Assembly: GCA_045616685.1 (NCBI GenBank)
Contig: JAZLHF010000002.1
Span: forward strand, 1-24,000
Reading direction: 5' to 3'
Length of the DNA stretch: 24,000 nt
Source: Anaerovoracaceae bacterium
Lineage (GTDB): Bacteria; Bacillota; Clostridia; Peptostreptococcales; Anaerovoracaceae
The position numbers and the translations under genes are program-made. The notes under the pieces were generated by a model, which was given only the letters and a program-made list of their open reading frames with translations, was not told where the DNA came from and ran no database searches. Below, piece after piece: positions 1,333 to 15,718 of the stretch. Positions within the stretch are counted from its first letter, which is position 1. Each line of letters opens with the position of its first letter.

Positions 1333-1339
1333 ATGATAA
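1313..1339. repeat. Island junction (attL-type hybrid site): shared core ATTACAATAAACTG plus island-side arm
   Basis: 1313-1326 ATTACAATAAACTG matches 14848-14861 ATTACTATAAACTG (13/14, direct). 1318-1339 AATAAACTGTTCCAAATGATAA is the reverse complement of 14829-14850 TTATCATTTGAAACAGTCTATT (20/22). Confidence 0.65.
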
Positions 1340-1397
1340 CTTTACATTACTATGTAAATCGAAACTCTATTAAAGTACTTTTACAAAGTCCCAACGT

Positions 1398-4238
1398 TTA
1401 TAATTTGTACTTTCCAACTATTGAAGTAAGAAAAGTTTCAATTTCATATTTAGCATTATTTGGTATTTTCTTTTCTAATAGTTGCTTTGGAATAATTACT
1501 CCAGATTTTCCGTGTACATTCTTTCTAAATACAATTTTATGTTCCTCACGTCTCAACCTTTGAATAATATATCCTTGGCTTAACCATGCATCTGATATAC
1601 AGCACTCATCATAGTTGTATTTAATAGCTCTTTTGGGAATATCAGCATCCCATTTTTCTTTCCATTCCCCAGGAGCTGTATCGTACCAAAATGCATCAGT
1701 AAAATAAGCTGTCCAATCAAGATTATCACCAATTATTTCTTCTATTTTTTTAAAGGTTAAAGTTACAGGCGATTTATTACATGTTCTAAAGAATTCCCTT
1801 AGCAAGTAGTATGGATCATCTTTTGTATTTTCCTCACTTATATATGTTTCTAATAATCCTAAGGTATTAATTCCTTCACCGCCATACCATGCACTGCTAT
1901 CAACAGCAATATTTGAGCATCTTTTGTGTACATATGCTAAGTTTTCAGCATTTATACCCTTATCTGGCCTTATTTTTACAATAGCAAGTTCCTGATCAGG
2001 AAGCATCCTCTTTTCACATGCAAAGCAAATACCCATTTGTCTTCGCCAGATTGCTTTATACTTATCTCCGGACACTCTGTTTATTTCTCTCTTATACTCA
2101 AGCTCATCATAATAAGCTTTGTCTAAATAAGGATTTGCTTCTGAACTTGTTGGAATCTGTCTTATTGGAGCCATTTCAGTTAACGATATTACTTGATAAT
2201 CCCTATGGTCTGGATCTGAAAACGCATAACCATTACTTGTTTTTATCCAAAACTTCTTTCTGATTTTTTCTTGTTCTCGCCTTGGATACATTTTCTTTGT
2301 TTTTGTTAAAAGAAGAGCATTTACAGCAACGTCTATATGCCTAAATGCTTCATATGCATCACTAATTCTTTGATAGTAACCCCATCCATAAAGCTTTCTA
2401 TTAAGTCCTTGTATAAACGATTTAATTGAGCCATTGTTATTCAAAATATACTTTTCAAGATTGCTTTCGAATGTTTTAATGGCATCATCTGATGGTCTAC
2501 TTTTAATCTGTCCATTATTCTTTTCGAAATGGTACGAAAGAAAATCAAAACCATCTTTTAGGTTTACTATTTTGCTTTTTTCTTCAGAAAGCTTTAGGCC
2601 ACGAATTTCTAAGAAGTCTTTTAATATTTTAAGTATATTTTCCGCCCTTTCTTTTGAATCTGCAGAAATAACAATATCATCTGCGAATCTAACAACCTTA
2701 CCATCTGAATGAGCTTTCAATAATTTTTCATCAATATATTGTTCAAGCCCATCCAAAGTCATGTTTCCAATTACAGGCGAAATACTTGAACCTTGAGATA
2801 TTCCGGCATCAGTTTCTCTCATAACGCCATTTTCTAAAACTCCAGCAGTTAAAAATTCTTTAAGAACGTGCTTATCCATTAAAATATTCTTCATTATCCA
2901 GTCATGGTTTATTTCATCATAATAATGTCTCACGTCTCCGTAAATAGCCCAGTCTGGTTTATCATATCCATTGAACATTTCCTTAACACATTCATGTGCA
3001 TCAAATATTGATCGTCCTTCTCTAAATCCAAAGGAATGTTTATCAGCAGTGCTTTCAGCCAAAGGCTTTAATGCAAATGAATAAAGAGTTTCCATTGCTT
3101 TATCATATTGTGTTGCAACTTTTATTATTCTTACTTTTCCACCTTGCTCCCTTAATTTAAAATTATAAAATGGTCTATGATGATAATCTTCTGCAGTTAA
3201 AGATAATACCGCCTTCATCTTTTCCGCATCCGTATTCCATTTAACATTGTCTATTCCAGATCCAGAATTATTATTAATTACCTTTCTTACTGCTAGTAGT
3301 TTTGCTGGCATAGAATTTACAATAATTAATTGCCATTCCAGGCATTTATCCCAATGTTTTAAACTTGCTTCAGTAGCAAGTCTATGTTGCATATTACTAA
3401 GCTTTCTTTCCATGATTGCCCAGTTTGTACTTGTCCACATCTCTGCAGCATTCTCATCATTAAGTAAATTTTTTTCTTTTGGTTTCCAAAATTGAATTTC
3501 CATTTTTATCGGACAGTGATCACTGCCATATATTTTGTTAAGGTGTTCTACGTCCTTAACTTCTCCAATTAATTCTCTTGAAATTAAAAAATAATCAAGG
3601 CGCCAGCCTCGATTCTCCCACCTTTTATTTAGTCTATTTGACCACCATGTATATGTTCTTGCCTGAGTCGGATAGTACGCTCTATACACATCAATTAAAT
3701 TACATGTTTGAATAAGATCTTTCATCCCAGTTCTTGTATCTTGATCAAATTTTGCTTCATTAATTTGGTTACGCTGGTTTTCTGGGTATATATCTATGCT
3801 CTCAAGTGCAACATTAAAATCCCCACATATAATTACTGGTTTATCCAAAGCTAAAATGAAATTTTTTAAGCATTTATCCCATCTAATTCTTACATCTAGT
3901 CGTTCCAGACCACTTTCAGCATTTGGCACATACACATTTATGACGTAATACTCCTGAAATTCAAGGCATATCATTCTGCCTTCAGCATTTAAATCAGAAT
4001 CTCCTATATCTGTTGTCACGGCTAAAGCTTTTTCTTTAGATAATATTAATGTTCCTGAGTACCCTTTTTTACTTGTGCATAGATTCCAATATTCCTCATA
4101 TTCATCTAATCTTAGCTGTATCTTCGACCTAACTTCTTGGCAACAAAAAAAATCTGCATTTTGTTTTCTTACCACTTGCTCAAATCCTTTTAATTTGCAT
4201 GCTTTAATTCCATTAACATTCCAGGATACTATTTTCAT
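1398..4238 (-). CDS. Fusion protein: N-terminal exonuclease III/APE-type (EEP) nuclease + group-II-intron-like reverse transcriptase + maturase/thumb-like region + CxxC..HxxC knuckle + C-terminal unknown module
   Basis: 946-aa ORF with SD-like GGAAGTGAGG upstream of the ATG at 4238. EEP motifs occur in order: SWNVNG, FFCCQEV, NVYVPN, ICGDFNV, GWRLDYFLIS, GSDHCPI (aa 1-247). RT blocks: GSGIDNV, RPFYNFKLREQGGKVRIIKV, HSFGFREGRS, YGDVRHYYDEINHD, GISQGSSISPVIGN, VRFADDIVIS, RGLKLSEEKSKI, GFDFLSYHF. Thumb-like region: RKLYGWGYYQ. Knuckle: CFACEKR...YVHKRC. Confidence 0.85.
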   Translation of the reverse strand: MKIVSWNVNGIKACKLKGFEQVVRKQNADFFCCQEVRSKIQLRLDEYEEYWNLCTSKKGYSGTLILSKEKALAVTTDIGDSDLNAEGRMICLEFQEYYVINVYVPNAESGLERLDVRIRWDKCLKNFILALDKPVIICGDFNVALESIDIYPENQRNQINEAKFDQDTRTGMKDLIQTCNLIDVYRAYYPTQARTYTWWSNRLNKRWENRGWRLDYFLISRELIGEVKDVEHLNKIYGSDHCPIKMEIQFWKPKEKNLLNDENAAEMWTSTNWAIMERKLSNMQHRLATEASLKHWDKCLEWQLIIVNSMPAKLLAVRKVINNNSGSGIDNVKWNTDAEKMKAVLSLTAEDYHHRPFYNFKLREQGGKVRIIKVATQYDKAMETLYSFALKPLAESTADKHSFGFREGRSIFDAHECVKEMFNGYDKPDWAIYGDVRHYYDEINHDWIMKNILMDKHVLKEFLTAGVLENGVMRETDAGISQGSSISPVIGNMTLDGLEQYIDEKLLKAHSDGKVVRFADDIVISADSKERAENILKILKDFLEIRGLKLSEEKSKIVNLKDGFDFLSYHFEKNNGQIKSRPSDDAIKTFESNLEKYILNNNGSIKSFIQGLNRKLYGWGYYQRISDAYEAFRHIDVAVNALLLTKTKKMYPRREQEKIRKKFWIKTSNGYAFSDPDHRDYQVISLTEMAPIRQIPTSSEANPYLDKAYYDELEYKREINRVSGDKYKAIWRRQMGICFACEKRMLPDQELAIVKIRPDKGINAENLAYVHKRCSNIAVDSSAWYGGEGINTLGLLETYISEENTKDDPYYLLREFFRTCNKSPVTLTFKKIEEIIGDNLDWTAYFTDAFWYDTAPGEWKEKWDADIPKRAIKYNYDECCISDAWLSQGYIIQRLRREEHKIVFRKNVHGKSGVIIPKQLLEKKIPNNAKYEIETFLTSIVGKYKL

Positions 4239-4255
4239 GATGCCTCACTTCCATT

Positions 4256-4305
4256 AAAAAACGGCTTTAAAGAGCTGCAACTTTATCTGTAGCTCTACAA
4301 AGCCG
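4256..4305 (-). terminator. Strong hairpin + T6 tract (intrinsic-terminator-like) between recombinase gene and RT start
   Basis: Minus strand reads CGGCTTTGTAGAGCTACAGATAAAGTTGCAGCTCTTTAAAGCCG followed by TTTTTT. The outer 7-bp stem is CGGCTTT/AAAGCCG and the inner 6-bp stem is AGAGCT/AGCTCT. The tract ends 17 nt before the RT ATG. Confidence 0.55.
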
Positions 4306-4308
4306 ATC

Positions 4309-4338
4309 ATTTTATTAATAAATAAGGATGAATATCAA
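4309..4338 (-). promoter_or_regulatory. Candidate sigma-A-type promoter for the RT gene
   Basis: Minus strand has TTGATA (rc of 4333-4338), an 18-nt spacer, then TAAAAT (rc of 4309-4314). The predicted start falls inside the 5' arm of the hairpin at 4262-4305. Confidence 0.35.
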
Positions 4339-4480
4339 CTTTTACAGCTGATAGTAAATTCTTATCTTATTCTTAGTTGCCTCTGCAAATAATTGATTTA
4401 TTAATATTTCTTTCATAATAAAGCCAGATTCCTTCAAACTATAATACAAACATTAATGATAAATCTTATACTATTTGCTA

Positions 4481-6298
4481 CTATTGCTTTTGTGCCTTTG
4501 CAATTTTCTTATCAGCCTTAACCAAACCTTTAAGTTTTGTAATATATGTTGTAAACGTGTTTTCTATATCAGCATTGTAACCCGTTATACTTGAGAAACC
4601 ATCAGGATTAATCTTTTCAAATAGTAGCGCTTCTAATTTTGCGAAGATATTAAGCTTAAAATCAACAAGCTTCTTATCATCAAATACAACATATTCCAGC
4701 ATATTTAATATTTCTTCTGGGCTATAGGAATCCCTTGGCAACAAATCTTCAACAGCTTTATTGTACTCATCAAGTAAATCTTGCACATAATCATACAGAT
4801 TACTGTTATTTTTTAGTATTGCATCCTTTTGCTTTGTAAGAACTTCTTTTTCTTGGCCAAGTGCTTCTACTTTATCAACCATATCTCTGGAATTTGTTAA
4901 TAACAAAGTTTCAGCAGCATTATCCAGCATTATGTTTACTTGAGTTAATCTTTCATTTATTGGTCTTACTGCTTCCAGGGCATCTTCTTCAATGTTCATT
5001 TCAATTGCAGCAACAATGAATACAATCAAGCGTTCATATATTTCTTGCTTTGCATGCTCAATATCAGCATTAATAACCTTGCCATCCTCAAACATTTTCA
5101 GTTCATCATCAATATATTTTTCAGTAATGTTTTTAGAATGACACTTTTTTATTCCGTAAGTGTGCTTGGTAGAACAAAGATAATAACGTTCCCCTTGCTT
5201 GTTTTTTTGCGAATGGAAAAATGCCCCACATTTTGCACATCTAATTTTTTCTGCATATTTTGTAACGCCACAGTAAGCAATACCTTTTTTATTATTAACA
5301 TACTTTGTGTGGGCTTCCCTAACTTGTTGACACTTATCAAAAATTACAGGATCAACTATTGCAGGGATTCTATCACTTGGTTCACAAATATAATGCTCAC
5401 GTGTGCGCATGTAATTTGGTTTATTTTCAAATACATATCCCCTTGTATGCTTCTGCGGATTATTAAATCCCTTATACTTTTCATTGGTAATCTTCTTTGT
5501 TATATCTGAAGATACCCACTCTGTGCGTTTGGTACTATTTGGCAAATTGCTTGGACGTTTTCTATAGCCTTCTTCATTTAAAGTATTGGCAATTCTTCTA
5601 CATCCAAAGCCTTGCGAATATAATTCAAACATCCTTCTAATTGCAGCAGCTTCTTCTTCAACAATTTCTAAACTGTTTGTTTCTTTTACATATCTATACC
5701 CATAAAGCTGACCCGAAGCATATATTTTGCCCTTTTTTGCACCTTCTTCTCTACCAAATCTAACCTTTTGGCTACGGTCACGGCTTTCATTTTCATCAAA
5801 TGTTAAGAATATCTGGATAAATGGCAAGTCATCTGACAGTCTTGTAGATTTATTAATATTTAAAAAATATACAAATACATCTTTTTCCCTAAGCCTATTA
5901 ATAATGCTCATTACTTCCATGTTCCTTGCAAATCTGGAAGTATTCTTAACAATGATATAATCAAATTTAGGCTTACGTTTGGAAACAGTATAAGCTTCAC
6001 CTGTTTTTCTACCAGAATCTTTATCTTTAATTTCAATTACATCAAGCCCGGCATCTTTAATCATTTTTGTAAATTCCGGCCTATTCAACTTGGTTCCAGT
6101 AATACCACGCTCAGGATAGATCTTTATTACATCAGATGGATCTTCTTTAAGTTCACGCTCAAAATAAGATCTCTGATTTTCCAATGAATTAAGCTGCGAT
6201 TCTTCTGTTGTAGAAACTCTACAATAAGCAACTGCTTTTGGCCGCCTGCCAAACTGTTCTTCAAATCTTCTAAATTCTTCTTGTACGCCTGAATGCAT
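4481..6298 (-). CDS. Large serine recombinase (integrase of the island)
   Basis: 605 aa. N-terminal resolvase catalytic domain (AVAYCRVSTTEESQLNSLENQ, with the catalytic Ser in RVST). Recombinase domain (YGYRYVKETNSLEIVEEEAAAIRRMFELY). Zn-ribbon (CAKCGAFFHSQ...YYLCSTKHTYGIKKC). Long C-terminal coiled-coil-like tail. Confidence 0.9.
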   Translation of the reverse strand: MHSGVQEEFRRFEEQFGRRPKAVAYCRVSTTEESQLNSLENQRSYFERELKEDPSDVIKIYPERGITGTKLNRPEFTKMIKDAGLDVIEIKDKDSGRKTGEAYTVSKRKPKFDYIIVKNTSRFARNMEVMSIINRLREKDVFVYFLNINKSTRLSDDLPFIQIFLTFDENESRDRSQKVRFGREEGAKKGKIYASGQLYGYRYVKETNSLEIVEEEAAAIRRMFELYSQGFGCRRIANTLNEEGYRKRPSNLPNSTKRTEWVSSDITKKITNEKYKGFNNPQKHTRGYVFENKPNYMRTREHYICEPSDRIPAIVDPVIFDKCQQVREAHTKYVNNKKGIAYCGVTKYAEKIRCAKCGAFFHSQKNKQGERYYLCSTKHTYGIKKCHSKNITEKYIDDELKMFEDGKVINADIEHAKQEIYERLIVFIVAAIEMNIEEDALEAVRPINERLTQVNIMLDNAAETLLLTNSRDMVDKVEALGQEKEVLTKQKDAILKNNSNLYDYVQDLLDEYNKAVEDLLPRDSYSPEEILNMLEYVVFDDKKLVDFKLNIFAKLEALLFEKINPDGFSSITGYNADIENTFTTYITKLKGLVKADKKIAKAQKQ

Positions 6299-6376
6299 AT
6301 CAATTACTCCACTAACATAAGAAGTTGTTTAATTTACGTTTTTATTATACCAGAAAAATTAATTTGTGTAACCCGC

Positions 6377-6404
6377 TTACGAACTGTATATATCACGGCA
6401 TAAT
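6377..6404 (+). promoter_or_regulatory. Candidate promoter for the Zn-ribbon/resolvase operon
   Basis: TTACGA (6377-6382), 16-nt spacer, CATAAT (6399-6404). It shares AACTG after the -35 and CACGGCATAAT with the candidate promoter at 12147-12175 on the other strand. Confidence 0.35.
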
Positions 6405-6511
6405 GAAAAAGGTCTCAAAACCTACAAGTTATGGGCAAATTTTAATGCCAACGTAAAACCAAGTATTTTGGCAGTTCCAAAACATAGTTTCAAAAATAGA
6501 GGTTAAAAACA

Positions 6512-6694
6512 ATGAAATGTTGTATCTGTGGATGTGAGATTACACATCCGTTAATTAAAAATTATCTTGGTAATAACCCTTGCCCTGTTACCACAGATCC
6601 TAATAAACGCTGCTGCGACAAGTGCAATGCTGAAGTAGTTATTCCGGCAAGAATTTTGCTATATGAAAAGCAAAGAACTGGAGGCAAAAAATGA
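6512..6694 (+). CDS. Small Cys-rich (Zn-ribbon-like) protein, translationally coupled to resolvase
   Basis: 60 aa with CxxC (CICGC) and CCDKC pairs. AGAGG lies upstream of the ATG. Its stop overlaps the resolvase ATG (ATGA at 6691-6694). Confidence 0.5.
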
Positions 6695-7278
6695 TCTATG
6701 GATATGCCAGAGTCTCAACCAAAGGTCAAGCCAAAGATGGGAACTCTTTAATAGCCCAAGAGAATGCGCTTAAGAGAAATGGTGCAACAACTGTAATGTA
6801 TGAGAGTTTTACCGGAACCAAGTTGCACCGACCGGTTCTTGATGAACTTCTTAATAAGCTGCAGTCTGGGGACACTCTTATAGTTACTAAATTGGACCGT
6901 ATCGCACGAAATGCCAGAGATGGAATTGATATTATTAATGAAGTACTAAACAAGGGTTGTAGTATCCGAATTCTTAATATGGGGCTATTTGATAATTCCC
7001 CGTCTGGTAAGCTTATGAGAACTGTCATGCTTGCTTTTGCTGAATTTGAACGTGACATGATTGTGCAGCGCACTCAGGAAGGTAAAGAAATTGCAAGGCA
7101 AAATCCAAGCTTTAGAGAAGGCAGGCCCCGGAAGTTTAGAAATGAGCAGCTTGTTCACGCCGTAGAACTTTTTAATTCCGGGAAAACATACAAAGAAGTT
7201 GAAGCACTTACCGGAGTTTCCCGTAGCACCTTGTACAGATCTCTCTTAAATCAAGAAATCAAGGACGCTAAATTGTAG
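6691..7278 (+). CDS. Small serine recombinase (resolvase/invertase family)
   Basis: 195 aa. [13 protein letters not shown] catalytic motif, [20 protein letters not shown] and a C-terminal HTH ([10 protein letters not shown]). Confidence 0.9.
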
Positions 7279-7369
7279 TGGAAGAGGCAAATTATAGGCG
7301 ATTCTTGCAAGCAACCAATACTCTCATAGCCTTTTCCTTTGTATTACAGGGGCTTGTAATTAATCATAA

Positions 7370-7405
7370 GACGTCTGTCCAAAGCTGGGTAGACGTCATT
7401 TTTTT
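7370..7405 (+). terminator. Rho-independent terminator after resolvase
   Basis: GACGTCT (7370-7376), 14-nt loop, AGACGTC (7391-7397), followed by ATTTTTTT. Confidence 0.5.
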
Positions 7406-7418
7406 AGGAGAAACCACA

Positions 7419-7559
7419 ATGAAGGAAATTATACCATTCAGTCAGGAAGAACAAGAAGCCATTAAAGCAATTATGCTTGAATATCTTACCAACTGCCAAT
7501 TAGTAATCCTGTGCAGTACTGAACCCCACGGGTTTTATACACTCAAAAGAAAACATTGA
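7419..7559 (+). CDS. Small hypothetical protein (46 aa)
   Basis: ATG at 7419 is preceded by AGGAG (7406-7410). This is the internal start of the 7278-7559 track ORF, whose upstream part crosses the terminator hairpin. Confidence 0.3.
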   Translation: MKEIIPFSQEEQEAIKAIMLEYLTNCQLVILCSTEPHGFYTLKRKH

Positions 7560-7787
7560 ATGGATTTTATCCCAAGATTTGAAGAATTGCTTAAAATCTA
7601 CAACATTACAGAAGATAGAATCATTGAGTTCGTTGAAGCTGATTGCTGCACTCCATTTATCTGAAATCTTATTAATAATAATAGAATTCCATATTACAAT
7701 TCTTTAGATGAAGTAGATATTAATCTTTTATATTAAGCAATGACCTTGGCCAATGTGGTAAAATAATATAAATAATTAGGTGTTAAT

Positions 7788-9185
7788 ATGACTTCTGGAT
7801 ATAAAGAAAAAACGTTATTCAAATACTTGCTGTACTTATATATGGTGCTTTGCCAAAGGGGATTTAAGCCACCTTTTATTAATGTTGGGTTGGGCGATAC
7901 TAACTTGGAAAAGCAACTGTCAGTAAGTAGAAAAACACTAATTCAAGTTCTAACTCAATTAGGGATAATAGTTCGCAGTACAAAATCCTATGCCTATCAT
8001 AAGATTAATATTTCATATAAATATTTTATTAACATAGATATGTATTTAGAATGTTTTAATGAAATTGTTGCAACAAAAGATATTATTGGATTTTTAAAAG
8101 ATTTTCCTGCTGATGTTCCAAATACTAATATTCAATCATTAGTATTACTAAGCAAGAAGATATGCAAAACAAACTGGACAATACTAAATAAAGATCAGAA
8201 GATATTGCTGACAACAAAGGTAAACAACTTATTAAATAATACTATTATTTGCTTTTTCCTTGGAGATTCAAAATATGCAAATATATCAGACGTAACAATG
8301 CTTACTGCAGCTTTTGATGACAATCAGCCACAGTTTAAAATTAAAAAAACAACACTGGATTGTATTAAAAATAATACCAATAACAGTCTTAAGCCTTTTG
8401 TTGTTCATACAAAATATAACTGGACAGAAGATCAAGAAGCTTATTATATAAACTACTACAAAAAAATGTTGTCAGAAACTACAATAATGCAGAATCTGAC
8501 GCAGTCAGTCCAAGAAGTAAGAAGCCACGGAATTGCTGTAAATTGCAATATTCATGTCAGCCTTTCTAAGCTTAAAGCCGGGTATAAATTTAAAGTATCA
8601 TGTCGCCAGTATAACCCATACTGTTCTCTGGAAAAAGAAATTCGGACACGAAGCTTTACACAAGAAGGAATTACTGGAAATTATGATTTACACAGCGCAA
8701 TTTTTGCTGTAACAAGATTAATGAATACTGGGGCATTTGAACCTGATTGGGATATTAAATCTGAAGTGTTAAAGCTAAATCCTGAAACTATTGATGGTAT
8801 ATGTTTAACTAAAGATGACTTAAAGCCCTTACTTATGAGGATGTTTTTTAAAAAAACTGATGCTGATGCTTATAACCATTATAGATATGCCTTATTACAG
8901 GATAGTGAGTCAGGTTTACCTAATATAAGCAAAGAAACTTTTTATAATATACTTGATAAATGTGAGAAACTGACTGGTGGGGTAAAAGAATATTATCATA
9001 ATATTTTTGAATTAGAGTCAATTATAGAACTTAGAAGTGTAAAACGTATTGCTAAGCAAAATAACACAGTAAGAAATATCTATGACTGTTTCTACTTTAA
9101 ACCAGAAGAAATAACTCAAGAAGAAGTTAAAAAAATAGTAAAGGAAGAAGCAGCAAAACTATATGCTATAATGAAAATGGCATAA
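7788..9185 (+). CDS. Hypothetical protein, possible wHTH DNA-binding/replication-initiator-like protein
   Basis: 465-aa ORF. The N-terminal segment (LEKQLSVSRKTLIQVLTQLGIIV) looks like an HTH. It is followed by an AT-rich palindromic region. I recognised no catalytic motif, so the Rep-like role is inferred from context only. Confidence 0.6.
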   Translation: MTSGYKEKTLFKYLLYLYMVLCQRGFKPPFINVGLGDTNLEKQLSVSRKTLIQVLTQLGIIVRSTKSYAYHKINISYKYFINIDMYLECFNEIVATKDIIGFLKDFPADVPNTNIQSLVLLSKKICKTNWTILNKDQKILLTTKVNNLLNNTIICFFLGDSKYANISDVTMLTAAFDDNQPQFKIKKTTLDCIKNNTNNSLKPFVVHTKYNWTEDQEAYYINYYKKMLSETTIMQNLTQSVQEVRSHGIAVNCNIHVSLSKLKAGYKFKVSCRQYNPYCSLEKEIRTRSFTQEGITGNYDLHSAIFAVTRLMNTGAFEPDWDIKSEVLKLNPETIDGICLTKDDLKPLLMRMFFKKTDADAYNHYRYALLQDSESGLPNISKETFYNILDKCEKLTGGVKEYYHNIFELESIIELRSVKRIAKQNNTVRNIYDCFYFKPEEITQEEVKKIVKEEAAKLYAIMKMA

Positions 9186-9272
9186 ATTGGTAGAAAAATT
9201 CAGAAATGCCCACATTTGTGGCAAATATATATATATTTATTATATTTAAAAAAAAATATATAAATAATAATC

Positions 9273-9318
9273 AAAAAAATTTTGCAAAATTTTTTTACCC
9301 CCTTTTTTGCAAAATTTT
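9273..9318. repeat. Two copies of the palindrome TTTTGCAAAA (first embedded in a perfect 24-nt palindrome), 25 bp centre to centre
   Basis: 9273-9296 AAAAAAATTTTGCAAAATTTTTTT is a perfect palindrome. A second TTTTGCAAAATTTT lies at 9305-9318. An (AT)6 run lies at 9225-9236 just upstream. Confidence 0.6.
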
Positions 9319-9321
9319 ATT

Positions 9322-9362
9322 AAAAAAACACAGAGAATTTTTATAAAACTCTGTGCTTTTTA
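9322..9362. terminator. Bidirectional terminator between convergent genes
   Basis: A7 tract, CACAGAG (9329-9335), loop, CTCTGTG (9349-9355), then CTTTTT. It sits between the + gene ending at 9185 and the - gene ending at 9372. Confidence 0.55.
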
Positions 9363-9371
9363 TTTATATAA

Positions 9372-10469
9372 TTATTCTTCTTCACTATTAATATTCCAAA
9401 GATCAATTTGCCTTAATCCATCATCCACAATTTCTTTTTTTATCTTTGGCTTTTTAATTTTAAACCCATTCTTTTCATATTGCAGATATGAATAAACTTC
9501 ATCCATTTCTTCTTTACTAACGCAGCCCCTTTTCCACTCATCTAATCTGTATTGAACTTCTTTATCATTGATATAATCATTGTACTTTTCAATTTCACAT
9601 ATTTTTTCACATAATTTCACTGGCACAAAAAAGTATTCTTCCCTGCCAATTTTTACTGCATTCAATTTATACCATACAGATCTGGCATACCTATATACCC
9701 CTTTATTCTTCCCCATAATTACCACAATGTCATTATCACCAGTTCCTAATTGATACTTTTTTCTAACCTTATAAAAAGGTCCTTCCAGTCCTGCATTATC
9801 AAAAATAACCGGGGTATAAACTATGTCAACATAATCTGGAACACAATTTGATCTTTCATACCTGTATTTAGGCATCTCTATAAGATTTATATTATCCCTA
9901 TTTACATCTGTTATTGAGTAGCTATCATTTGTATCTATAAACTCTTTCTGTCCCTCTGATAAAAAAGCCCAACCATAATTAAAAGATTGAATTTGATTAT
10001 TAATCTGTTTAATTATTTTTTCTACAATGCTTTCAACAATTTCATCATCAGCTTCAAGTCCAGTAATCTCTTTATATTTCTCTACTGTAAGATCAGTTAA
10101 CTTGCAAACTCTCATTTTAGCAGGAATTGGAATAGATAACATAACCGTCACATATTCCTGATAGCTATATTTTGTGCTAAATGCATTGTCAAATCTCATT
10201 CCCCCTGATTCCATTTCTCCACCAATATATCTGTAAACTCCATTATAAATTCCTGCACAAGTGACAACAATAAAATTGTATTTAACAGAGCTCTGATATT
10301 TCAAATCTACAACGGCATGCAGGGCTACTTCCCCATTTTTAATTTTAATAACTGGTGTATATACAAAACTCCAATTAGTTGGTAAGTTTCTTACTCTTTT
10401 TGGCTGATATCCAGATACAAGTAATTTTACAGATTCAAAACCAGTATTTTTATATATTTTTGAAAGCAT
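9372..10469 (-). CDS. Hypothetical protein with internal tandem duplication (third gene of AAA-protease operon)
   Basis: ATG at 10469 with AAGGAG 7 nt upstream (the track starts at the TTG at 10475). Two ~45-aa blocks are repeated: VYTPVI...KYQ...IVV...GVYRY at aa 38-83 and 219-263. No family was recognised. Confidence 0.7.
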   Translation of the reverse strand: MLSKIYKNTGFESVKLLVSGYQPKRVRNLPTNWSFVYTPVIKIKNGEVALHAVVDLKYQSSVKYNFIVVTCAGIYNGVYRYIGGEMESGGMRFDNAFSTKYSYQEYVTVMLSIPIPAKMRVCKLTDLTVEKYKEITGLEADDEIVESIVEKIIKQINNQIQSFNYGWAFLSEGQKEFIDTNDSYSITDVNRDNINLIEMPKYRYERSNCVPDYVDIVYTPVIFDNAGLEGPFYKVRKKYQLGTGDNDIVVIMGKNKGVYRYARSVWYKLNAVKIGREEYFFVPVKLCEKICEIEKYNDYINDKEVQYRLDEWKRGCVSKEEMDEVYSYLQYEKNGFKIKKPKIKKEIVDDGLRQIDLWNINSEEE

Positions 10470-10524
10470 AAGCAAACTCCTTTTTTAATAATATAATTAT
10501 ATAAAAAAAGCTGCCAAGCTTCAA

Positions 10525-11835
10525 TTAATTTGGTCCCCTTAAAATGCAAGCTAAATCGGGCTGCAAAACAACCTTCTTTTTAAACAGCTCATCAGCAAGC
10601 CGATCCAATTTATCTCTGTTAGAAATTAACATTAACTTTGCTTGTTGGTAGAAACGTTCCATCTCACTTGCAACCATTGTTTCTTTTCTGTTAAGAAGTG
10701 CCTCTGATGATGCAGAACAAATTCCTTCCCAGTAGTTAAATCCCATGGCTGCATAATCATCAACAAATCTGGTTACAATAGCATAAGCCCTATGCAGATC
10801 ATTATTACAGCCTACATCTGGAACACCAAATACAATTTCAATTGCAGCTTTTCCGGCAAGTAATGTCACAACCCTGTTTTCCATTGATTTTTTATTATAA
10901 AAATAATATGGCTCTTGAGTATGGTTTGTCATGCCAGCTGGGACTTCAGGGTGTGGATTACAAACAGTAACTATATTAATTAACCCCGGTGTTAACAACT
11001 CACTAACAAGTGCATGTGCTGCCTCATGATAGCAAACATGTATTAAGTACGGATTATCATTTTCATTAAAAACTTCTGGATCACTATAAAGATACCTTAA
11101 ACAAGCTTTAATCATATCATCCATATCAATTGCTTCTTTGTCTTCAAAACCAGCAAATATACCGGCTTGATTAACCACTTCCTGAAGCTGAGCACATGAA
11201 CTGCCTTGCAAGATTCTTGCAATAAGCGGTGCATCAACATTTGAAACATATGGCAGCTTTGATAAATAATGTCCAACTATTGCTTCAACATCATTGCTTC
11301 TTGGTTTAGATATATAAAGCTGCTGTCCAAATCTACCAGCCCTAAGCAATGAGTCCGGCAAACATTCTAAAGAATTTGCTGTAGCAAGCACAAAGATATC
11401 TCTATCACCAATTTCATCTATGCATGTTTGAACAGTAATATATTCTTCAGCATTTGGATGCCTTCTGTCTGTATTAGCATATCTATCAAGATCATCAAGC
11501 AGAATTATACACTTGCCATTTTCTTTATAATAAGCCTTAGCTTCTTCAAATACTTGCTTTATATAATTTACAAACTCACCATCAGGCTTATCTTTTCTGC
11601 AAACAAAAACTTTCCTACCAAGTTCTTTTGCAATACTCTGTGCAATAACTGTTTTACCAACCCCTGGATCACCATGAAGCAAAAATGCCTTTGGTGCCTT
11701 AACCCCTAAAGCCTGATACTTTTCAGGATTATTCAACATATCACAGATATAATCAATTTCATTCTTTTCTTCTTCATACCCAATAATTTCATCAAAGTAT
11801 TTCAGCATAAAAGCCCCCATCATTCTTAAATCCAA
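10525..11835 (-). CDS. Soluble FtsH-like protein: AAA+ ATPase fused to M41-type zinc metalloprotease, no N-terminal transmembrane segments
   Basis: Walker A HGDPGVGKTV, Walker B IILLDDLD, second region of homology ATANSLECLPDSLLRAGRFGQQLYISKP, and HEXXH zinc site HEAAHAL. The FtsH-like lead-in YFDEIIGYEEEKNEI is present. The start is uncertain: TTG at 11835, or ATG at 11823, 11820 or 11808. Confidence 0.8.
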   Translation of the reverse strand: MDLRMMGAFMLKYFDEIIGYEEEKNEIDYICDMLNNPEKYQALGVKAPKAFLLHGDPGVGKTVIAQSIAKELGRKVFVCRKDKPDGEFVNYIKQVFEEAKAYYKENGKCIILLDDLDRYANTDRRHPNAEEYITVQTCIDEIGDRDIFVLATANSLECLPDSLLRAGRFGQQLYISKPRSNDVEAIVGHYLSKLPYVSNVDAPLIARILQGSSCAQLQEVVNQAGIFAGFEDKEAIDMDDMIKACLRYLYSDPEVFNENDNPYLIHVCYHEAAHALVSELLTPGLINIVTVCNPHPEVPAGMTNHTQEPYYFYNKKSMENRVVTLLAGKAAIEIVFGVPDVGCNNDLHRAYAIVTRFVDDYAAMGFNYWEGICSASSEALLNRKETMVASEMERFYQQAKLMLISNRDKLDRLADELFKKKVVLQPDLACILRGPN

Positions 11836-11837
11836 AA

Positions 11838-12116
11838 CTACTTGCCACTTTTGATATAGTCACGTTCTTTTATAAAAGCCTTCCCATTTTTGAACTCGTA
11901 GTAAGTTCTTAAAGCATTTTTTAAATCATTGTCTGCTCTGACATTTCCGGTATCAATCTGCTGCAGTGCACTAAACATCTGACTATCATCAGCAACAATT
12001 TCATCAGGATCTTTAACAAGCAATTTTTCAACTTTTACTAATCGGCACAATCTGCTGTTGGATGAGTTACTTGTGTATTTCTCATTCAAGTAATTCAAAA
12101 ATTCTGTTTTATCCAT
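11838..12116 (-). CDS. Small hypothetical protein (92 aa), first gene of AAA-protease operon
   Basis: ATG at 12116 with AAGGAG 6 nt upstream. Its stop lies 2 nt from the longest start of the AAA-protease ORF. No family was recognised. Confidence 0.55.
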   Translation of the reverse strand: MDKTEFLNYLNEKYTSNSSNSRLCRLVKVEKLLVKDPDEIVADDSQMFSALQQIDTGNVRADNDLKNALRTYYEFKNGKAFIKERDYIKSGK

Positions 12117-12146
12117 TTGGGGCTCCTTTCTTCTTAGCGTGCACAT

Positions 12147-12175
12147 ATTATGCCGTGTTTCAGGCAGTTTGCGAA
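12147..12175 (-). promoter_or_regulatory. Candidate promoter of the 92aa/AAA-protease/365aa operon
   Basis: Minus strand has TTCGCA (rc of 12170-12175), a 17-nt spacer, then CATAAT (rc of 12147-12152). It lies just downstream of the terminator hairpin at 12197-12222. Confidence 0.4.
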
Positions 12176-12196
12176 TGCCCTTTTTTCAAGCACGCA

Positions 12197-12222
12197 AAAA
12201 GGACTCATCTGGGAGTCCTTTT
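12197..12222 (-). terminator. Hairpin terminator downstream of the methyltransferase gene
   Basis: AAAAGGACTC / 6-nt loop / GAGTCCTTTT forms a perfect 10-bp inverted repeat. T-runs flank it on both strands. Confidence 0.5.
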
Positions 12223-12415
12223 ACTGTCCGTTAAGATATTTCTATTAAAATATCAGTTTTGTGCGACCACGGAGACAAAACAAGCCTTAATTCTTGTTAT
12301 AAACTAATTATTATAAATAGATGCTTAAAATTACAAATTCTTAAACTCATCAACACAAGCTTTGCAAAGATTTTCTCTAGAAAAACCTATTTCTTAGTTC
12401 TTTTTACAACAAAAT

Positions 12416-13402
12416 CTATTTATTTAAATTAATTGCTTTTATTATTTCTTGTGCAATTCTATTAATTACAGATACACACACACTGTTACCGGCTTGCTTA
12501 TAGAGTTTTGCATCACTTAAATCGTCCGGTAGTTTATATTTCTTTGGAAAACCCTGTGTATTAAAACATTCTTTTGGTGTCATTTTTCTAATACCATAAT
12601 CAGTTTTTATCAGGCAAACATTATGCCCACCTTCCCCCTGATTTGCTGTTAAAGTTGGCACCACACCGGATTTGTTTTTTCTAACATATTGGCGCCTCCA
12701 TTGGTAAACAGCACGATCATCATCCATAGCTTCTACCAATTTGTCATAAATATCACCCTTATATTTTCCTTGTGTATAATAATACTTGTCATCAATTTTA
12801 CTATGAAAATCTATAATATCCTCTAAAGATTTTGTGAGTTTTACAGGCTTAGGGAAATTAAAGCTCTTATTTGTCTCTTCATCAAGAAATCCAACTATAT
12901 AAATACGTTCTCTGTTTTGCGGAATATTACCATATTCCATAGCATTTAAAACCATATACTTTGGATTGTGATAGCCACGTTTTTCAAGTTCATCAATGAT
13001 TACTCTGAATGTATTCCCATTATCATGTCCCACCAGATTTTTCACATTTTCTAAAAATACTATCTGTGGCTTTTTATTCCCCTTTTCATCAATAATGCGC
13101 ATTAACTCAAAGAATAAAGTCCCCCGACCTTTTTCATCATCAAATCCTTTTCTATATCCTGCAACACTAAAAGCCTGACATGGAAACCCAGCAAGCATCA
13201 CATCAAAATCTGGAATCTCACTTGCTTTGACTTTATGTATATCTCTCACATCAACTTTTATATTAAAATTTTGTTCATATGTTTTTGCCGGAAATGCATC
13301 AAATTCATTAGCATAGACTGTTTGGAAAGCTTTGGTCATTTCAAACCCAAGATCAATTCCTCCAACTCCTGCAAAGAAAGATGCACATTTTAAATTATCC
13401 AT
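12416..13402 (-). CDS. DNA (cytosine-5)-methyltransferase
   Basis: Motif I FFAGVGGIDLGF, motif IV GFPCQAFSVAG, motif VI ENVKNL, motif VIII QNRERIY, TRD-proximal TLTANQGEGGHN and motif X YKQAGNSV. ATG at 13402 with GGAGG (rc of 13406-13410). The longer track start at 13477 runs through the promoter. Confidence 0.92.
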   Translation of the reverse strand: MDNLKCASFFAGVGGIDLGFEMTKAFQTVYANEFDAFPAKTYEQNFNIKVDVRDIHKVKASEIPDFDVMLAGFPCQAFSVAGYRKGFDDEKGRGTLFFELMRIIDEKGNKKPQIVFLENVKNLVGHDNGNTFRVIIDELEKRGYHNPKYMVLNAMEYGNIPQNRERIYIVGFLDEETNKSFNFPKPVKLTKSLEDIIDFHSKIDDKYYYTQGKYKGDIYDKLVEAMDDDRAVYQWRRQYVRKNKSGVVPTLTANQGEGGHNVCLIKTDYGIRKMTPKECFNTQGFPKKYKLPDDLSDAKLYKQAGNSVCVSVINRIAQEIIKAINLNK

Positions 13403-13435
13403 GATACCTCCTATATGTATATCACCATTTAGTAT

Positions 13436-13465
13436 ATTATATCGTAAAATCGCGGCGCGCTGCAA
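13436..13465 (-). promoter_or_regulatory. Candidate methyltransferase promoter with GC-rich spacer
   Basis: Minus strand has TTGCAG (rc of 13460-13465), the 18-nt spacer CGCGCCGCGATTTTACGA, then TATAAT (rc of 13436-13441). Confidence 0.45.
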
Positions 13466-13475
13466 TTCATTTCCC

Positions 13476-13506
13476 AAAATTAAACACGCGCTTTTTTATG
13501 CGCGTG
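13476..13506 (-). terminator. Hairpin terminator after the nuclease gene
   Basis: Minus strand has CACGCGC, loop ATAAAAAA, GCGCGTG, followed by TTTAATTTT. It starts 8 nt after the stop at 13514. Confidence 0.5.
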
Positions 13507-13513
13507 CTTAGTT

Positions 13514-14524
13514 CTACTGTTCTTCCAGAGCTTCACCTACTTCAGAAATAATGTTCCAGTTTTCTTTATATTCTGACAACTCAGTTAGTGGAACACTTTC
13601 TCTTCCGGCATCAACCCATTCATCAATCTTAGTTGTGGGTATAAGATAACAGATACCAAAACGCTTATCCACGGCTGCATAAATATCACAATCTTTAGAG
13701 GAAATAAACTTTCCACGATTTCTTGCTGCCGTTGGATCAATTCCAGCACCCCCACGGTCTCTATCTTTTAGTGCAATTGATGGCTGTGTCGTACTTGAAA
13801 TATCAGATAATATGCCTTTAATCTGAACTCTTAATAACCGGCCATTATAATCAATAAATGCATCATATCTACAAGACCTTACATCTACATTTGCACACAT
13901 AAATCCGGCAAGTATTGCTCTTGCAAGAAAAATGAACTGCGCAGCATCTCCCTCATTGGCAACCATGACACCAGTATTAATACTTGTCATATTCCTGACA
14001 AAGCCATTTGTTAAACCCAAAAACAATGAATCATCCAATAAGTGTCCAAGGCTTTTCTTAATATACGTTAATTCAGTATCATTTATGTCATCATCAGAAT
14101 ATTCATGGAAAGATAAGACATCATTAAAAACTAAATCTTTAAATCCAGTATTTGTAAAATATGTTTTCTTAACAGAATTAAGAATCATATCTTCATAATA
14201 ATTTCTAACATCCTTCCAGGCAAAAACTTTACTATTTGCATAGCTTTTAATTTCTCTTTCAATAGCAGCTTTTGAATTTCCTTCAATATCCCGCATATCA
14301 GCAGATAATTCATTAGGATTATTCTGTGCATACTCTTTAAATTTTTTGCTCAGATACGGTGTAATGTCTGTCTGCGTATATTGCGGATCGGCTTCCCTAA
14401 ATTCATTAGGGAATGCATTTATTAAATTTTTCGCTGTAAATCTTGTTGGATGATCATTAAATTCAACAATATTATCTGCAACAAATTGTTCTAAATCATC
14501 TTTATGTGTAATTACTATAGCCAT
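13514..14524 (-). CDS. PD-(D/E)XK nuclease-domain protein, probable type II restriction endonuclease partner of the C5-methyltransferase
   Basis: The C-terminal half carries a PD-(D/E)XK-like core, AAQFIFLARAILAGF...YDAFIDYNGRLLRVQIKG, then DIYAAVDKRFGICYLIP. It lies immediately upstream of the MTase on the same strand. ATG at 14524 (the track uses the TTG at 14542). Confidence 0.55.
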   Translation of the reverse strand: MAIVITHKDDLEQFVADNIVEFNDHPTRFTAKNLINAFPNEFREADPQYTQTDITPYLSKKFKEYAQNNPNELSADMRDIEGNSKAAIEREIKSYANSKVFAWKDVRNYYEDMILNSVKKTYFTNTGFKDLVFNDVLSFHEYSDDDINDTELTYIKKSLGHLLDDSLFLGLTNGFVRNMTSINTGVMVANEGDAAQFIFLARAILAGFMCANVDVRSCRYDAFIDYNGRLLRVQIKGILSDISSTTQPSIALKDRDRGGAGIDPTAARNRGKFISSKDCDIYAAVDKRFGICYLIPTTKIDEWVDAGRESVPLTELSEYKENWNIISEVGEALEEQ

Positions 14525-14582
14525 CTTTTCCACCACTGACAAACAAAAAATTGATTTGCCAATAGTATAACAGACGTGTAAC

Positions 14583-14783
14583 TTAATTTCCAGATGCTCT
14601 ATCTTTCATATTATTTACTTTAATAATTAACTGCCCATGTTTATATTGCACATCAATTGGAGTCCCTGGTATAAATCCAATGTTTTCAAGCCATCTTCCC
14701 TTCAATCTAATCATTGCAACAGGCTTGCAATGATAATCACTTGAAGTATATACCCGCATCTTATGTATACTATTATTTTCCAT
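14583..14783 (-). CDS. symE: SymE-family (AbrB-fold) type I toxin-like protein
   Basis: KPVAMIRLKGRWLENIGFIPGTPIDVQYKHGQLII matches the SymE signature (E. coli SymE: [33 protein letters not shown]). ATG at 14783 with AGAGG upstream. The track start at 14813 is the alternative. Confidence 0.75.
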   Translation of the reverse strand: MENNSIHKMRVYTSSDYHCKPVAMIRLKGRWLENIGFIPGTPIDVQYKHGQLIIKVNNMKDRASGN

Positions 14784-14828
14784 GTTCAACCTCTGTAATA
14801 ATTGAAATTTCAACTATTACTACTATTT

Positions 14829-14861
14829 TTATCATTTGAAACAGTCTATTACTATAAACTG
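14829..14861. repeat. Island junction (attR-type hybrid site): island-side arm plus shared core ATTACTATAAACTG
   Basis: See the 1313-1339 feature. The site is locally palindromic: CAGTCTAT-TACT-ATAAACTG. Confidence 0.65.
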
Positions 14862-14863
14862 CT

Positions 14864-15016
14864 TCATAGCTTGTTATACCTCATATCCCTCAATTCTACT
14901 TCTTTTTGCCATAAGTCCTGCATTGAATGTAGTACGCTGTCATCTTTAAAGATCAGGGTGTTAACAATACAAATTCCAAGTACTACGGATGCAACCAGAA
15001 CTATCAGCTGTTTCAT
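14864..15016 (-). CDS. Small hydrophobic protein (50 aa), paralog of 15020-15190; possible non-canonical Flp-like pilin
   Basis: Not in the ORF track (under 60 aa). ATG at 15016 with GGGGA upstream. Translation: MKQLIVLVASVVLGICIVNTLIFKDDSVLHSMQDLWQKEVELRDMRYNKL. Its TGA overlaps an ATG at 14865-14867 (ATGA) that opens the truncated MKQFIVIDCFK peptide. Confidence 0.45.
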   Translation of the reverse strand: MKQLIVLVASVVLGICIVNTLIFKDDSVLHSMQDLWQKEVELRDMRYNKL

Positions 15017-15019
15017 TTT

Positions 15020-15190
15020 TTAATCCCCAAAACCTTCAGCAATAGCTGCATCAAACGCTGTATCAACAGCAGTAACAGCCTCACCAACATTGTCGGCTAA
15101 AGTTGTTGCATTATCTCCTAAACCAATAACTACGCCACTAATTGAAATTCCAAGTATTACTGTAGCTACTAAAACCATCAATTGTTTCAT
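15020..15190 (-). CDS. Small hydrophobic protein (56 aa), possible non-canonical Flp-like pilin
   Basis: ATG at 15190 with AAAGGGGA upstream. Translation: MKQLMVLVATVILGISISGVVIGLGDNATTLADNVGEAVTAVDTAFDAAIAEGFGD. The longer track ORF (to 15265) overlaps the upstream gene. Confidence 0.5.
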   Translation of the reverse strand: MKQLMVLVATVILGISISGVVIGLGDNATTLADNVGEAVTAVDTAFDAAIAEGFGD

Positions 15191-15203
15191 TGAATTTCCC
15201 CTT

Positions 15204-15716: not shown

Positions 15717-15718
15717 TT

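Follow-up and report, generated by a model that had tools for sequence, protein, structure and literature searches.

A single gene of the 24,000-nucleotide stretch of Anaerovoracaceae bacterium analysed here (assembly GCA_045616685.1, contig JAZLHF010000002.1, positions 1 to 24,000; hereafter the window) encodes a protein in which an ExoA/APE1-type nuclease is fused to a reverse transcriptase (RT) of the group II intron type. This fusion is a conserved bacterial family and not an assembly artefact, and many of its copies are cargo of integrative and conjugative elements (ICEs), other conjugative elements and prophage-like islands in gut anaerobes, often near restriction-modification (R-M), BREX and other defence genes. 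The protein descends from a group II intron-encoded protein (IEP) of the T.el4h-like (IIB-type) lineage; it is domesticated, devoid of intron RNA, and has acquired a cellular repair-type nuclease. Its architecture is apparently new and the family undescribed. As for the biological role, defence is favoured and DNA repair is the main rival, while an earlier suggestion made from the window alone (the original prediction), that the protein could be a retroelement able to nick a target and prime reverse transcription, found no positive evidence.

Domains of the fusion protein

The gene (1398..4238, reverse strand, as are all parts of it given below) is one uninterrupted, ATG-started open reading frame (ORF) of 946 aa plus stop in the ORF list of the window, and Pfam, NCBIfam and an AlphaFold2 (AF2) model concur in dividing its complete product into an ExoA/APE1-type nuclease, a group II-type RT, the remnant of a dead endonuclease (En) domain and a DUF7662 C-terminal domain (CTD). 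Pfam matches follow each other in the order Exo_endo_phos (aa 4-241, 1e-22), RVT_N (1e-13), RVT_1 (2e-31) and GIIM (1.5e-6), all above the gathering score, followed by a DUF7662 match (aa 810-859, 5e-5) slightly under it. The exact protein is present in NCBI on a 61.5-kb contig, where it carries no product name. The representative of the 90% cluster to which it belongs is a 221-aa fragment, which is why the exact protein is missing from our list of homologs and the best listed match is only 58% identical.

The first 248 residues (3495..4238) form an Xth/ExoA/APE1-type AP (abasic site) endonuclease/3'-5' exonuclease domain. It reaches 228.2 bits with the xth model TIGR00633 (cut-off 99) and 199 bits with TIGR00195 (cut-off 182.6), and aligns end to end with B. 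subtilis ExoA, H. pylori XthA and human APE1 at 39-41% identity. In a Foldseek comparison with these three enzymes the modelled domain gave TM scores of 0.83-0.93 and root-mean-square deviations of 1.8-2.5 Å, consistent with the four-layer alpha/beta sandwich of the EEP fold. The catalytic set N7, N9, E35, Y103, D140, N142, D215, D240 and H241 is present; in it N7, E35, Y103, D140, N142, D215, D240 and H241 are the respective counterparts of N68, E96, Y171, D210, N212, D283, D308 and H309 of APE1. Likewise, the hydrophobic pocket that in APE1 receives the flipped-out abasic sugar (F266/W280/L282) corresponds to W198/W212/L214. E35, Y103, D140, N142, D215, D240, H241 and W198 are invariant in a 27-sequence alignment of the family and, together with N7, in one of 68 sequences, and W212 and L214 belong to the family consensus but are not among the listed conserved columns. 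The N-terminal domain is thus predicted to be an intact AP endonuclease-type centre. The EEP motifs read by the original prediction were recovered (SWNVNG at aa 5-10, CCQEV at 32-36, NVYVPN at 101-106, GDFNV at 139-143, GWRLDYFL at 211-218 and GSDHCPI at 238-244), and its view of a catalytically intact nuclease holds with respect to both residues and fold, so that the possibility of an N-terminal part lacking either can be set aside.

Since the domain shares about 40% identity with ExoA/APE1 and passes the xth equivalog cut-off, we conclude that it was recruited from a bacterial repair gene; it is a cellular ExoA/APE1-type enzyme, not related by descent to the endonucleases of long interspersed nuclear elements (LINEs). 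The retrotransposon-type Pfam model Exo_endo_phos_2 matches it at 20.8 bits, under the cut-off of 27.4. Two members of the family (P0096 and P0115, 921-928 aa) are labelled simply 'exodeoxyribonuclease III' by NCBI, presumably because their scores clear the cut-off of the xth equivalog model but not that of the group II RT model, and in proteins of about 940 aa this public label masks the RT.

After a linker at aa 249-265 (3444..3494), delimited by a predicted local distance difference test (pLDDT) score below 50 at aa 251-258 and by the junctions of split homologs, the group II-type part extends over aa 266-780. It comprises RVT_N, which is the N-terminal extension (NTE, RT0 region) typical of group II intron RTs (aa 268-347, 3198..3437; Pfam 9.5e-14), the RT fingers and palm of RVT_1 (aa 365-571, 2526..3146; Pfam 1.7e-31, invariant columns), the thumb or maturase X domain of GIIM (aa 587-664, 2247..2480; 28.5 bits against a cut-off of 23), and a D domain with the remnant of an HNH-type En domain (aa 690-780, 1899..2171). 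The NTE, thumb and D/En assignments also rest on alignment with the T.el4h group IIB intron maturase (6me0_C for D/En), which is the closest solved relative of aa 266-775 (6me0/8fli, E = 5e-79) and is collinear from its residue 23 through the NTE, RT, thumb and D domains into En. Among the solved RTs compared, this maturase scores 250 bits, others at most 97, and R2 and LINE RTs at most 27. Accordingly, the group II intron type of the RT, already recognized by the original prediction, is well founded, and the motifs it had listed are in place: YGDVRHYYD at aa 433-441, FADD at 518-521 (nt 2676-2687) and RKLYGWGYYQ at 614-623. In the RT, G408-R409 is invariant and S410 nearly so, and these residues, D435 and both aspartates of the R[FY]ADD box (D520 and D521) are invariant or nearly so in the 27- and 68-member alignments. 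The match to the NCBIfam model group_II_RT_mat (TIGR04416) reaches 246.8 bits, under its equivalog cut-off of 300.

In the En region, EIHHILP...GG...DNLVLIHANCH of T.el4h aligns with AIVKIRP...G...ENLAYVHKRC of the fusion protein. The catalytic His-His pair of HNH is replaced by V-K (by VE or VP in homologs), whereas C738, C741, H771 and C774 (nt 1917-2027) persist as Zn ligands that hardly vary, if at all, in the family. The remnant is therefore predicted to be catalytically dead with its Zn knuckle retained, in agreement with the decayed HNH/En domain and the Cys knuckle (C738xxC741...H771xxC774) that the original prediction had proposed.

A weakly conserved linker, predicted to be disordered (aa 781-806, 1821..1898; pLDDT below 50), leads to the CTD (aa 807-946, 1401..1820), in which a DUF7662 half (Pfam 5.4e-5) precedes a beta-hairpin and a long helix (AF2 pLDDT 87.6). 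The modelled order of these last 140 residues, helix-strand-helix-helix followed by the beta-hairpin and the long helix, resembles the topology of a winged helix. With the CTD model no significant Foldseek neighbour was found in PDB or BFVD, the weak matches being mostly winged-helix DNA binders, and nucleic-acid binding by this domain may be weakly suggested. A profile search with the CTD returned 1720 representatives, many of which are fragments of the fusion family and others tandem DUF7662 proteins; four of the latter (P0121, P0122, P0129 and P0134, 769-1314 aa) hold 6-11 tandem copies and no other recognisable domain, and the neighbourhood of one such tandem gene (L179, 6001-9504) is uninformative. 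This CTD had been overlooked by the original prediction, as had the two-gene versions described below. The AF2 model as a whole, built on a 68-sequence alignment, has a mean pLDDT of 87, with about 90-96 predicted for the nuclease (aa 1-248), and confidence is low only in a nuclease loop (aa 157-161) and in the two linker segments at aa 251-258 and 781-806.

Conservation, two-gene versions and loss of the intron RNA

A homolog search among 5.8 billion clustered proteins returned 382 matches, the best 120 of which are all 880-980 aa long. These align over 93-100% of the query, at 38-58% identity, with an identical set of Pfam domains. The fusion is not an artefact, because at least 120 independent full-length clusters share the architecture and the catalytic residues and Zn ligands are invariant in 68 sequences; an artificial joining of two genes, which the original prediction had considered, is thereby excluded. 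Judged by this pattern of conservation, purifying selection acts on both enzymatic centres. When 185,579 species were scanned, each by a single genome, the fusion family was found in 23 loci, each from a different assembly and, as seen, in one copy each, distributed over three phyla. The hosts include Oscillospiraceae, Lachnospiraceae and other Clostridia, metagenome-assembled genomes (MAGs) of Bacilli, Bengtsoniella (a complete genome, L086), Alistipes, Rikenellaceae, Muribaculaceae and one Eggerthellaceae bin, and most members come from gut samples. Eight further members lie on IMG/VR contigs. Where identical proteins occur on 21-24 contigs, the surrounding mobile element is the same every time.

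In eight loci (L005, L006, L007, L082, L092, L095, L100 and L101) the two activities are encoded by separate genes, with an ExoA-like protein of about 250 aa upstream of an RT protein of about 700 aa. The two genes overlap in six of these loci (in four by only 4-11 nt) and are separated by 5-52 nt in the other two, and the stop and restart fall exactly at the position of the fusion linker. In several split nucleases the SDHCP motif reads SDHYP, SDHFP, SDHAP or SDHLP. A neighbour-joining (NJ) tree of the RT domain, without support values, joins the 31 nuclease-linked RTs, fused and split, in one clade that excludes the 57 intron IEPs used for comparison, which argues for a single origin of both forms. 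Five of the eight two-gene loci form the basal branch of this clade, and the position of the split group suggests that the nuclease began as an independent gene, closely linked upstream of the RT gene, with the fusion as a later event. Together the split and fused versions make up a Rosetta-stone pattern, by which the predicted nuclease and RT activities would work together.

The nearest genomic relatives of the family are bona fide group II introns, with IEPs 31-37% identical to the query. Nevertheless, no intron RNA accompanies the fusion: the window holds no Rfam match of any kind at E<=1, and in nine fusion loci, with up to 8 kb of flank per side, none (0/9) contains an intron RNA at the Rfam gathering score. 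Nine control loci from the same genome scan, chosen with IEPs in that 31-37% range, were all positive (9/9) for RF02012 (group-II-D1D4-7, upstream), RF00029 (Intron_gpII D5/D6, downstream) or both, seven of them holding both RNA parts and two short contigs one part. With the controls positive, we regard the RT as domesticated and intron-less, i.e. G2L-type (group II-like), rather than as a demonstrated retrotransposon. An RT motif, [GA]NM[TVM]L[DN]G[LM][QE], is common to the fusion family and to certain genuine group II introns (Rfam D1D4-7 type; L103-L160), found in Bacteroidales, Clostridia, methanogenic archaea and others. Several of these introns occupy 2.1-2.5 kb contigs that end at the intron boundaries, as is typical of multi-copy repeats and unlike the fusion family.

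Nor are the flanks of the gene conserved. When the 350 nt upstream and the 300 nt downstream of the gene were compared by blastn among all of 28 loci, only a shared upstream coding ORF in one sub-clade emerged, the upstream regions of the window and of its closest homolog (L177, 58% identity) are unrelated in spite of their near-equal length, and no near-identical copies with differing flanks were found among the fetched loci. In copies 65-75% identical at the DNA level, similarity ends 0-17 nt from the start and stop codons, which carries no information on element boundaries but argues against constrained untranslated regions (UTRs). The intergenic gaps around family genes are as short as 30-70 nt, and with flanks that are not conserved this makes an adjacent template RNA, in the style of retrons, DRT2 or DRT9, or LINE-like UTRs unlikely.

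As to expression signals, LexA/Cheo boxes are no more frequent upstream of the gene than expected by chance, and SOS regulation was rejected on the chance level of the Cheo boxes. The best promoter-like site near the RT gene of the window, TTGATA-18 nt-TAAAAT (4309..4338, reverse strand), is a consensus match only (10/12 in a consensus scan). A hairpin (4305-4262) followed by a run of six T (4261-4256) lies on the same strand at 4256..4305, with about 17 nt between it and the start codon. Its predicted RNA fold has -21.6 kcal/mol (z = -2.7), and it could be either the terminator of the recombinase gene or an attenuator in the leader of the RT gene. In L177 a GC-rich hairpin with a T-run likewise precedes the ribosome binding site (about 4240-4270), even though the upstream gene is divergent; a leader hairpin as a family trait was rejected, as it is found in the window and L177 but not generally.

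Genomic context and putative role

In the window the RT gene marks one end of a roughly 14-kb island (approximately 1333-15200), which confirms the location with R-M cargo given by the original prediction. Immediately upstream of the RT gene lies a large serine recombinase (4481-6298), followed by a resolvase (6691-7278), an AAA-M41 protease (10525-11835), a C5-methylase (12416-13477) and its probable partner ORF (13514-14542), besides unknown ORFs; housekeeping genes begin at about 18.9 kb. The island appears to interrupt a secretion- or pilus-like cluster, with flanks at 521-1332 and 15204-18729, as judged from weak T2SSE and AAA_31 matches at 16635-18729, together with small ORFs at 521-1332 whose N-termini are hydrophobic. 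Other members occupy comparable surroundings. The closest homolog adjoins two serine recombinases, SHOCT and an amidase; one member lies in the accessory region of a Tn916-like ICE, with an MmeI-type R-M gene and Xis/Int directly downstream; another shares a conjugative element with a Type III R-M system, a YpsA/SLOG gene and a sigma-70 r4 regulator; and in L090 the RT gene is directly upstream of another MmeI gene. In L086 and L087 it is directly downstream of a gene of the metallo-beta-lactamase (MBL) fold. The two MBL genes (L086 6021-7015 and L087 2708-3702) are 78% identical in DNA between Bengtsoniella (Bacillota) and a Rikenellaceae MAG (Bacteroidota), an indication that the MBL and RT genes were recently transferred together from one phylum to the other.

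A census of 150 neighbouring ORFs in 19 loci, given as raw counts, found by Pfam nine HTH_3 (XRE-type), five Resolvase, four ResIII, three Y-family polymerase, three YpsA, two each of BrxA and BrxB, and two Eco57I; PADLOC added two type IIG R-M, two DrmD/DrmMI, two LmuA and two RT-associated MBL. R-M, BREX and other defence genes adjoin several loci but not others, and no partner gene is universal among the loci inspected. In the survey of copy number and neighbourhood called for by the original prediction, one copy per assembly was seen, and defence neighbours are present at some loci only.

Based on this mobile-element context amid defence genes, we tentatively favour defence or another nucleic-acid function as mobile-element cargo, a reading to which we give slightly less than an even chance and under which the protein is not an autonomous retrotransposon. 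We hypothesize that the nuclease would make or trim a DNA 3'-OH at a nick, a gap or an abasic site, and might also strip RNA from hybrids, whereas the RT, with a canonical YADD-type site that should be proficient in primer extension, would elongate this end with RNA or DNA as template while the Zn knuckle of the dead En and the CTD hold the nucleic acid. The gene would in this way act as a single-gene accessory system of mobile elements against foreign or damaged DNA, that is, in anti-phage or anti-plasmid defence, possibly with an additional part in the damage response as reported for PPRT (PrimPol-RT). Precedents are at hand: PPRT, in which an RT is fused to a DNA enzyme, has roles in defence and against oxidative damage (PMC12439943), the RT-nuclease fusion of retron Eco2 acts in defence (PMC12916289), and about 25% of G2L RTs are found near defence systems (PMC8632793).

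Several observations weigh against this proposal. The role is read from context, and in three members the gene stands by itself on a chromosome, its surroundings free of recombinase, transfer and defence genes for 8 kb; one lies between giant surface proteins, one after rubredoxin/rubrerythrin/redox genes and one beside SLH proteins. The context that makes the defence-type RT of the original prediction plausible is thus not uniform. The redox context of one of them fits the repair of oxidative damage better than defence, and the Y-family polymerase genes that neighbour three loci would also suit damage tolerance. No family-specific defence-RT model of PADLOC or NCBIfam matches the protein, which shows only generic RT similarity; the NCBIfam models for Drt2, 3a, 4, 5 and retrons yield 20-46 bits against cut-offs of 200-600. 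A conserved flanking non-coding RNA (ncRNA) was not found, whereas DRT2, DRT9 and retrons have a dedicated ncRNA or are protein-primed. Among 72,556 plasmids and 50,697 deposited phage genomes there is no full-length member. Finally, the orientation of the domains is not reliably predicted (AF2 pTM 0.57), which leaves a hand-off between the two active sites as conjecture.

The strongest competitor, possible though clearly less probable than a cargo function in defence, is a role in DNA repair or damage tolerance resembling that of G2L4. In one self-contained module, the nuclease would incise or clean oxidative lesions, abasic sites and blocked 3' ends, and the RT would resynthesise DNA in gap filling, microhomology-mediated end joining or translesion synthesis, in the service of the host or of incoming mobile-element DNA. 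A near-canonical ExoA/APE1 domain with an intact AP-site pocket is what such a role would call for, and no dedicated ncRNA is apparent. G2L4, the sole free-standing G2L RT with a known role, acts in double-strand-break repair, and mobile intron RTs show a basal repair activity of the same kind (PMC12337344, bioRxiv 10.1101/2022.03.14.484287); PPRT, too, contributes to the oxidative-damage response (PMC12439943). The Y-family polymerase genes already mentioned and the member placed directly after rubredoxin, rubrerythrin and redox genes point in the same direction. In that locus (L181, 3832-10805), a single case, the RT gene follows rhodanese, CoA-disulfide-reductase-like, rubredoxin and rubrerythrin genes on the same strand, all of them genes with which anaerobes meet oxidative stress, and a DDE transposase gene lies about 4.5 kb upstream. 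A repair function agrees poorly, however, with a rare and patchy distribution (23 of about 185,000 species representatives), with the many copies on mobile elements instead of conserved chromosomal positions and with LexA/Cheo boxes at chance frequency. In addition, the hosts very probably encode a normal xth already, and the active site is YADD/FADD as in mobile intron RTs, not the YIDD that the authors of the G2L4 work tie to repair.

It is unlikely, but worth considering, that the protein serves the life cycle of the mobile elements themselves, through complementary-strand synthesis, repair of transferred or excised DNA, or the countering of host defences based on abasic sites or nicks. The gene frequently occupies the accessory regions of ICEs, integrative and mobilizable elements and prophage-like islands, near integrases, a relaxase, a type IV secretion system coupling protein, ParB and XRE/sigma regulators. 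In one sub-clade it is preceded by a YpsA/DprA-like SLOG gene, and priming of DNA synthesis by group II-type RTs has been reported (PMC10415136). These elements carry the gene in their variable cargo region and not in a conserved core module; moreover, many related elements are without it, some copies lie on no recognisable element, and it is absent from the sequenced plasmids (72,556).

Less probable still is a prokaryotic version of reverse transcription primed at nicks or abasic sites, in which an intron-derived RT would have exchanged its dead HNH for an APE-type nuclease. If true, it would repeat in bacteria the step thought to have created the APE-class LINEs, and RNA-templated DNA would be written into a target either by a still-mobile LINE-like element or intron helper or by a defence or repair device.

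We deem it highly doubtful that the family is an active or recent retroelement, be it one that nicks DNA and copies its own mRNA as LINEs do, or a trans-acting helper of ORF-less group II introns in which the ExoIII domain replaces the dead HNH for bottom-strand cleavage. The domain order is that of APE-class ORF2p, with a collinear structural alignment to human L1 ORF2p, and the full IEP domain set is kept, maturase X and D domain included. In addition, even sister copies have unrelated flanks, several lone genes stand in unrelated chromosomal contexts, and some contigs scarcely exceed the gene (L088, L173). On the other hand, intron RNA was found in 0/10 loci while all of the controls (9/9) were detected, no 5' or 3' non-coding sequence is conserved even between 74%-identical copies, the 23 genomes hold one copy per assembly and identical proteins always share one context. 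The two-gene versions, moreover, have the overlap or close spacing typical of cellular operons, and the nuclease is of the generalist repair type, under the Exo_endo_phos_2 cut-off. The nick-and-prime retroelement of the original prediction is therefore left with no positive evidence, given the missing intron RNA, the lack of a conserved UTR or flank and the single copy per assembly.

A chimeric assembly or a functionless, decaying pseudogene fusion, at which the in-frame stop of L098 and the many fragmentary database entries might hint, has a negligible probability and is effectively refuted by the conservation data, with the best 120 of 382 matches full-length and of the same architecture, catalytic residues conserved across 38-58% identity, the exact protein on the 61.5-kb NCBI contig and one member (L086) in a complete genome. 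The stop of L098 (Oscillospiraceae bacterium 38-13) is a TAG in the En-remnant region, around 9380-9432, which splits the ORF into 759 + 171 aa; it may mark a pseudogene, stem from a sequencing error or serve as a site of read-through.

Comparison with known systems

No description of a fusion of an EEP/ExoIII nuclease with an RT in prokaryotes was found in the openly readable RT literature, classification papers included (among them PMC8934634, PMC8632793, PMC12337344 and PMC12439943), although a prior mention elsewhere is possible; to this extent the novelty claimed by the original prediction stands. The closest counterparts by definition are the G2L RTs, whose nearest relatives are group II IEPs and which lack intron RNA structure (PMC8632793), and the RT of the fusion is of G2L type by this definition. 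Like G2L4 of Pseudomonas aeruginosa, it is most similar to group II IEPs, has no surrounding intron RNA, is single-copy and keeps the NTE, RT and thumb. It differs in its ExoA/APE1 nuclease, dead En and DUF7662 CTD, none of which is mentioned for G2L RTs in openly readable papers, in an F/YADD active site where G2L4 has YIDD, in its apparent descent from a T.el4h-like (D/En-bearing) lineage and in its many copies on mobile elements. With the group II IEPs that have D and En domains (T.el4h, PDB 6me0/8fli) it shares a collinear NTE-RT-X-D-En order, about 30-35% identity and TM scores of 0.85-0.92, but not the intron RNA or the HNH catalytic His, and it has extra N- and C-terminal domains and scores 247 bits where the IEP model requires 300.

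PPRT and RT-Cas1 likewise combine, within a single polypeptide, a group II-like RT, an enzyme that processes DNA and a long C-terminal domain; their partner is PrimPol or the Cas1 integrase instead of an EEP nuclease, and the RT lineage is another. In retrons Eco2 and Ec67 an RT and a nuclease likewise share one polypeptide, which in those systems acts in phage defence, but they have an msr-msd ncRNA and a C-terminal Toprim nuclease, whereas no conserved ncRNA is found here and the NCBIfam retron models fall far under their cut-offs. The family thus sets a new architecture beside the domesticated bacterial RTs (RT-Cas1, PrimPol-RT, G2L4), which have repeatedly yielded new defence and repair mechanisms and biotechnology tools, and a compact polypeptide combining a nickase with a processive RT would follow the functional logic of prime-editing-type enzymes.

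Human LINE-1 ORF2p (PDB 9hdr, 9k6i, 8uw3) is the counterpart in domain order. The RTs of eukaryotic non-LTR (long terminal repeat) retrotransposons are considered to descend from those of group II introns, and the swap of a site-specific nuclease for one of the APE type is a landmark of LINE evolution that is usually placed in eukaryotes. The LINE-ORF2-like layout noted in the original prediction is borne out by the Pfam order and by Foldseek, in which an APE-type EEP nuclease, RT, thumb and Cys-containing C-terminal region follow one another collinearly over about 890 columns (E about 1e-25 to 1e-27). Even so, identity is 15-16% and there is no rigid-body match (TM 0.2-0.3); the fusion RT belongs to the group II clade, its nuclease is a recently recruited bacterial ExoA-type enzyme with an intact AP pocket, and the family is without evidence of multi-copy spread, UTRs or target-site duplications. 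The recruitment of the nuclease from a cellular enzyme implies that the LINE-like layout is, as far as the data go, convergent. In this conserved bacterial family an RT of group II descent has given up the catalysis of its HNH domain and acquired an APE1/ExoA-type nuclease, placed N-terminally just as in LINEs, and the family offers a tractable bacterial system in which to ask whether such a pairing suffices for nick-primed cDNA synthesis.

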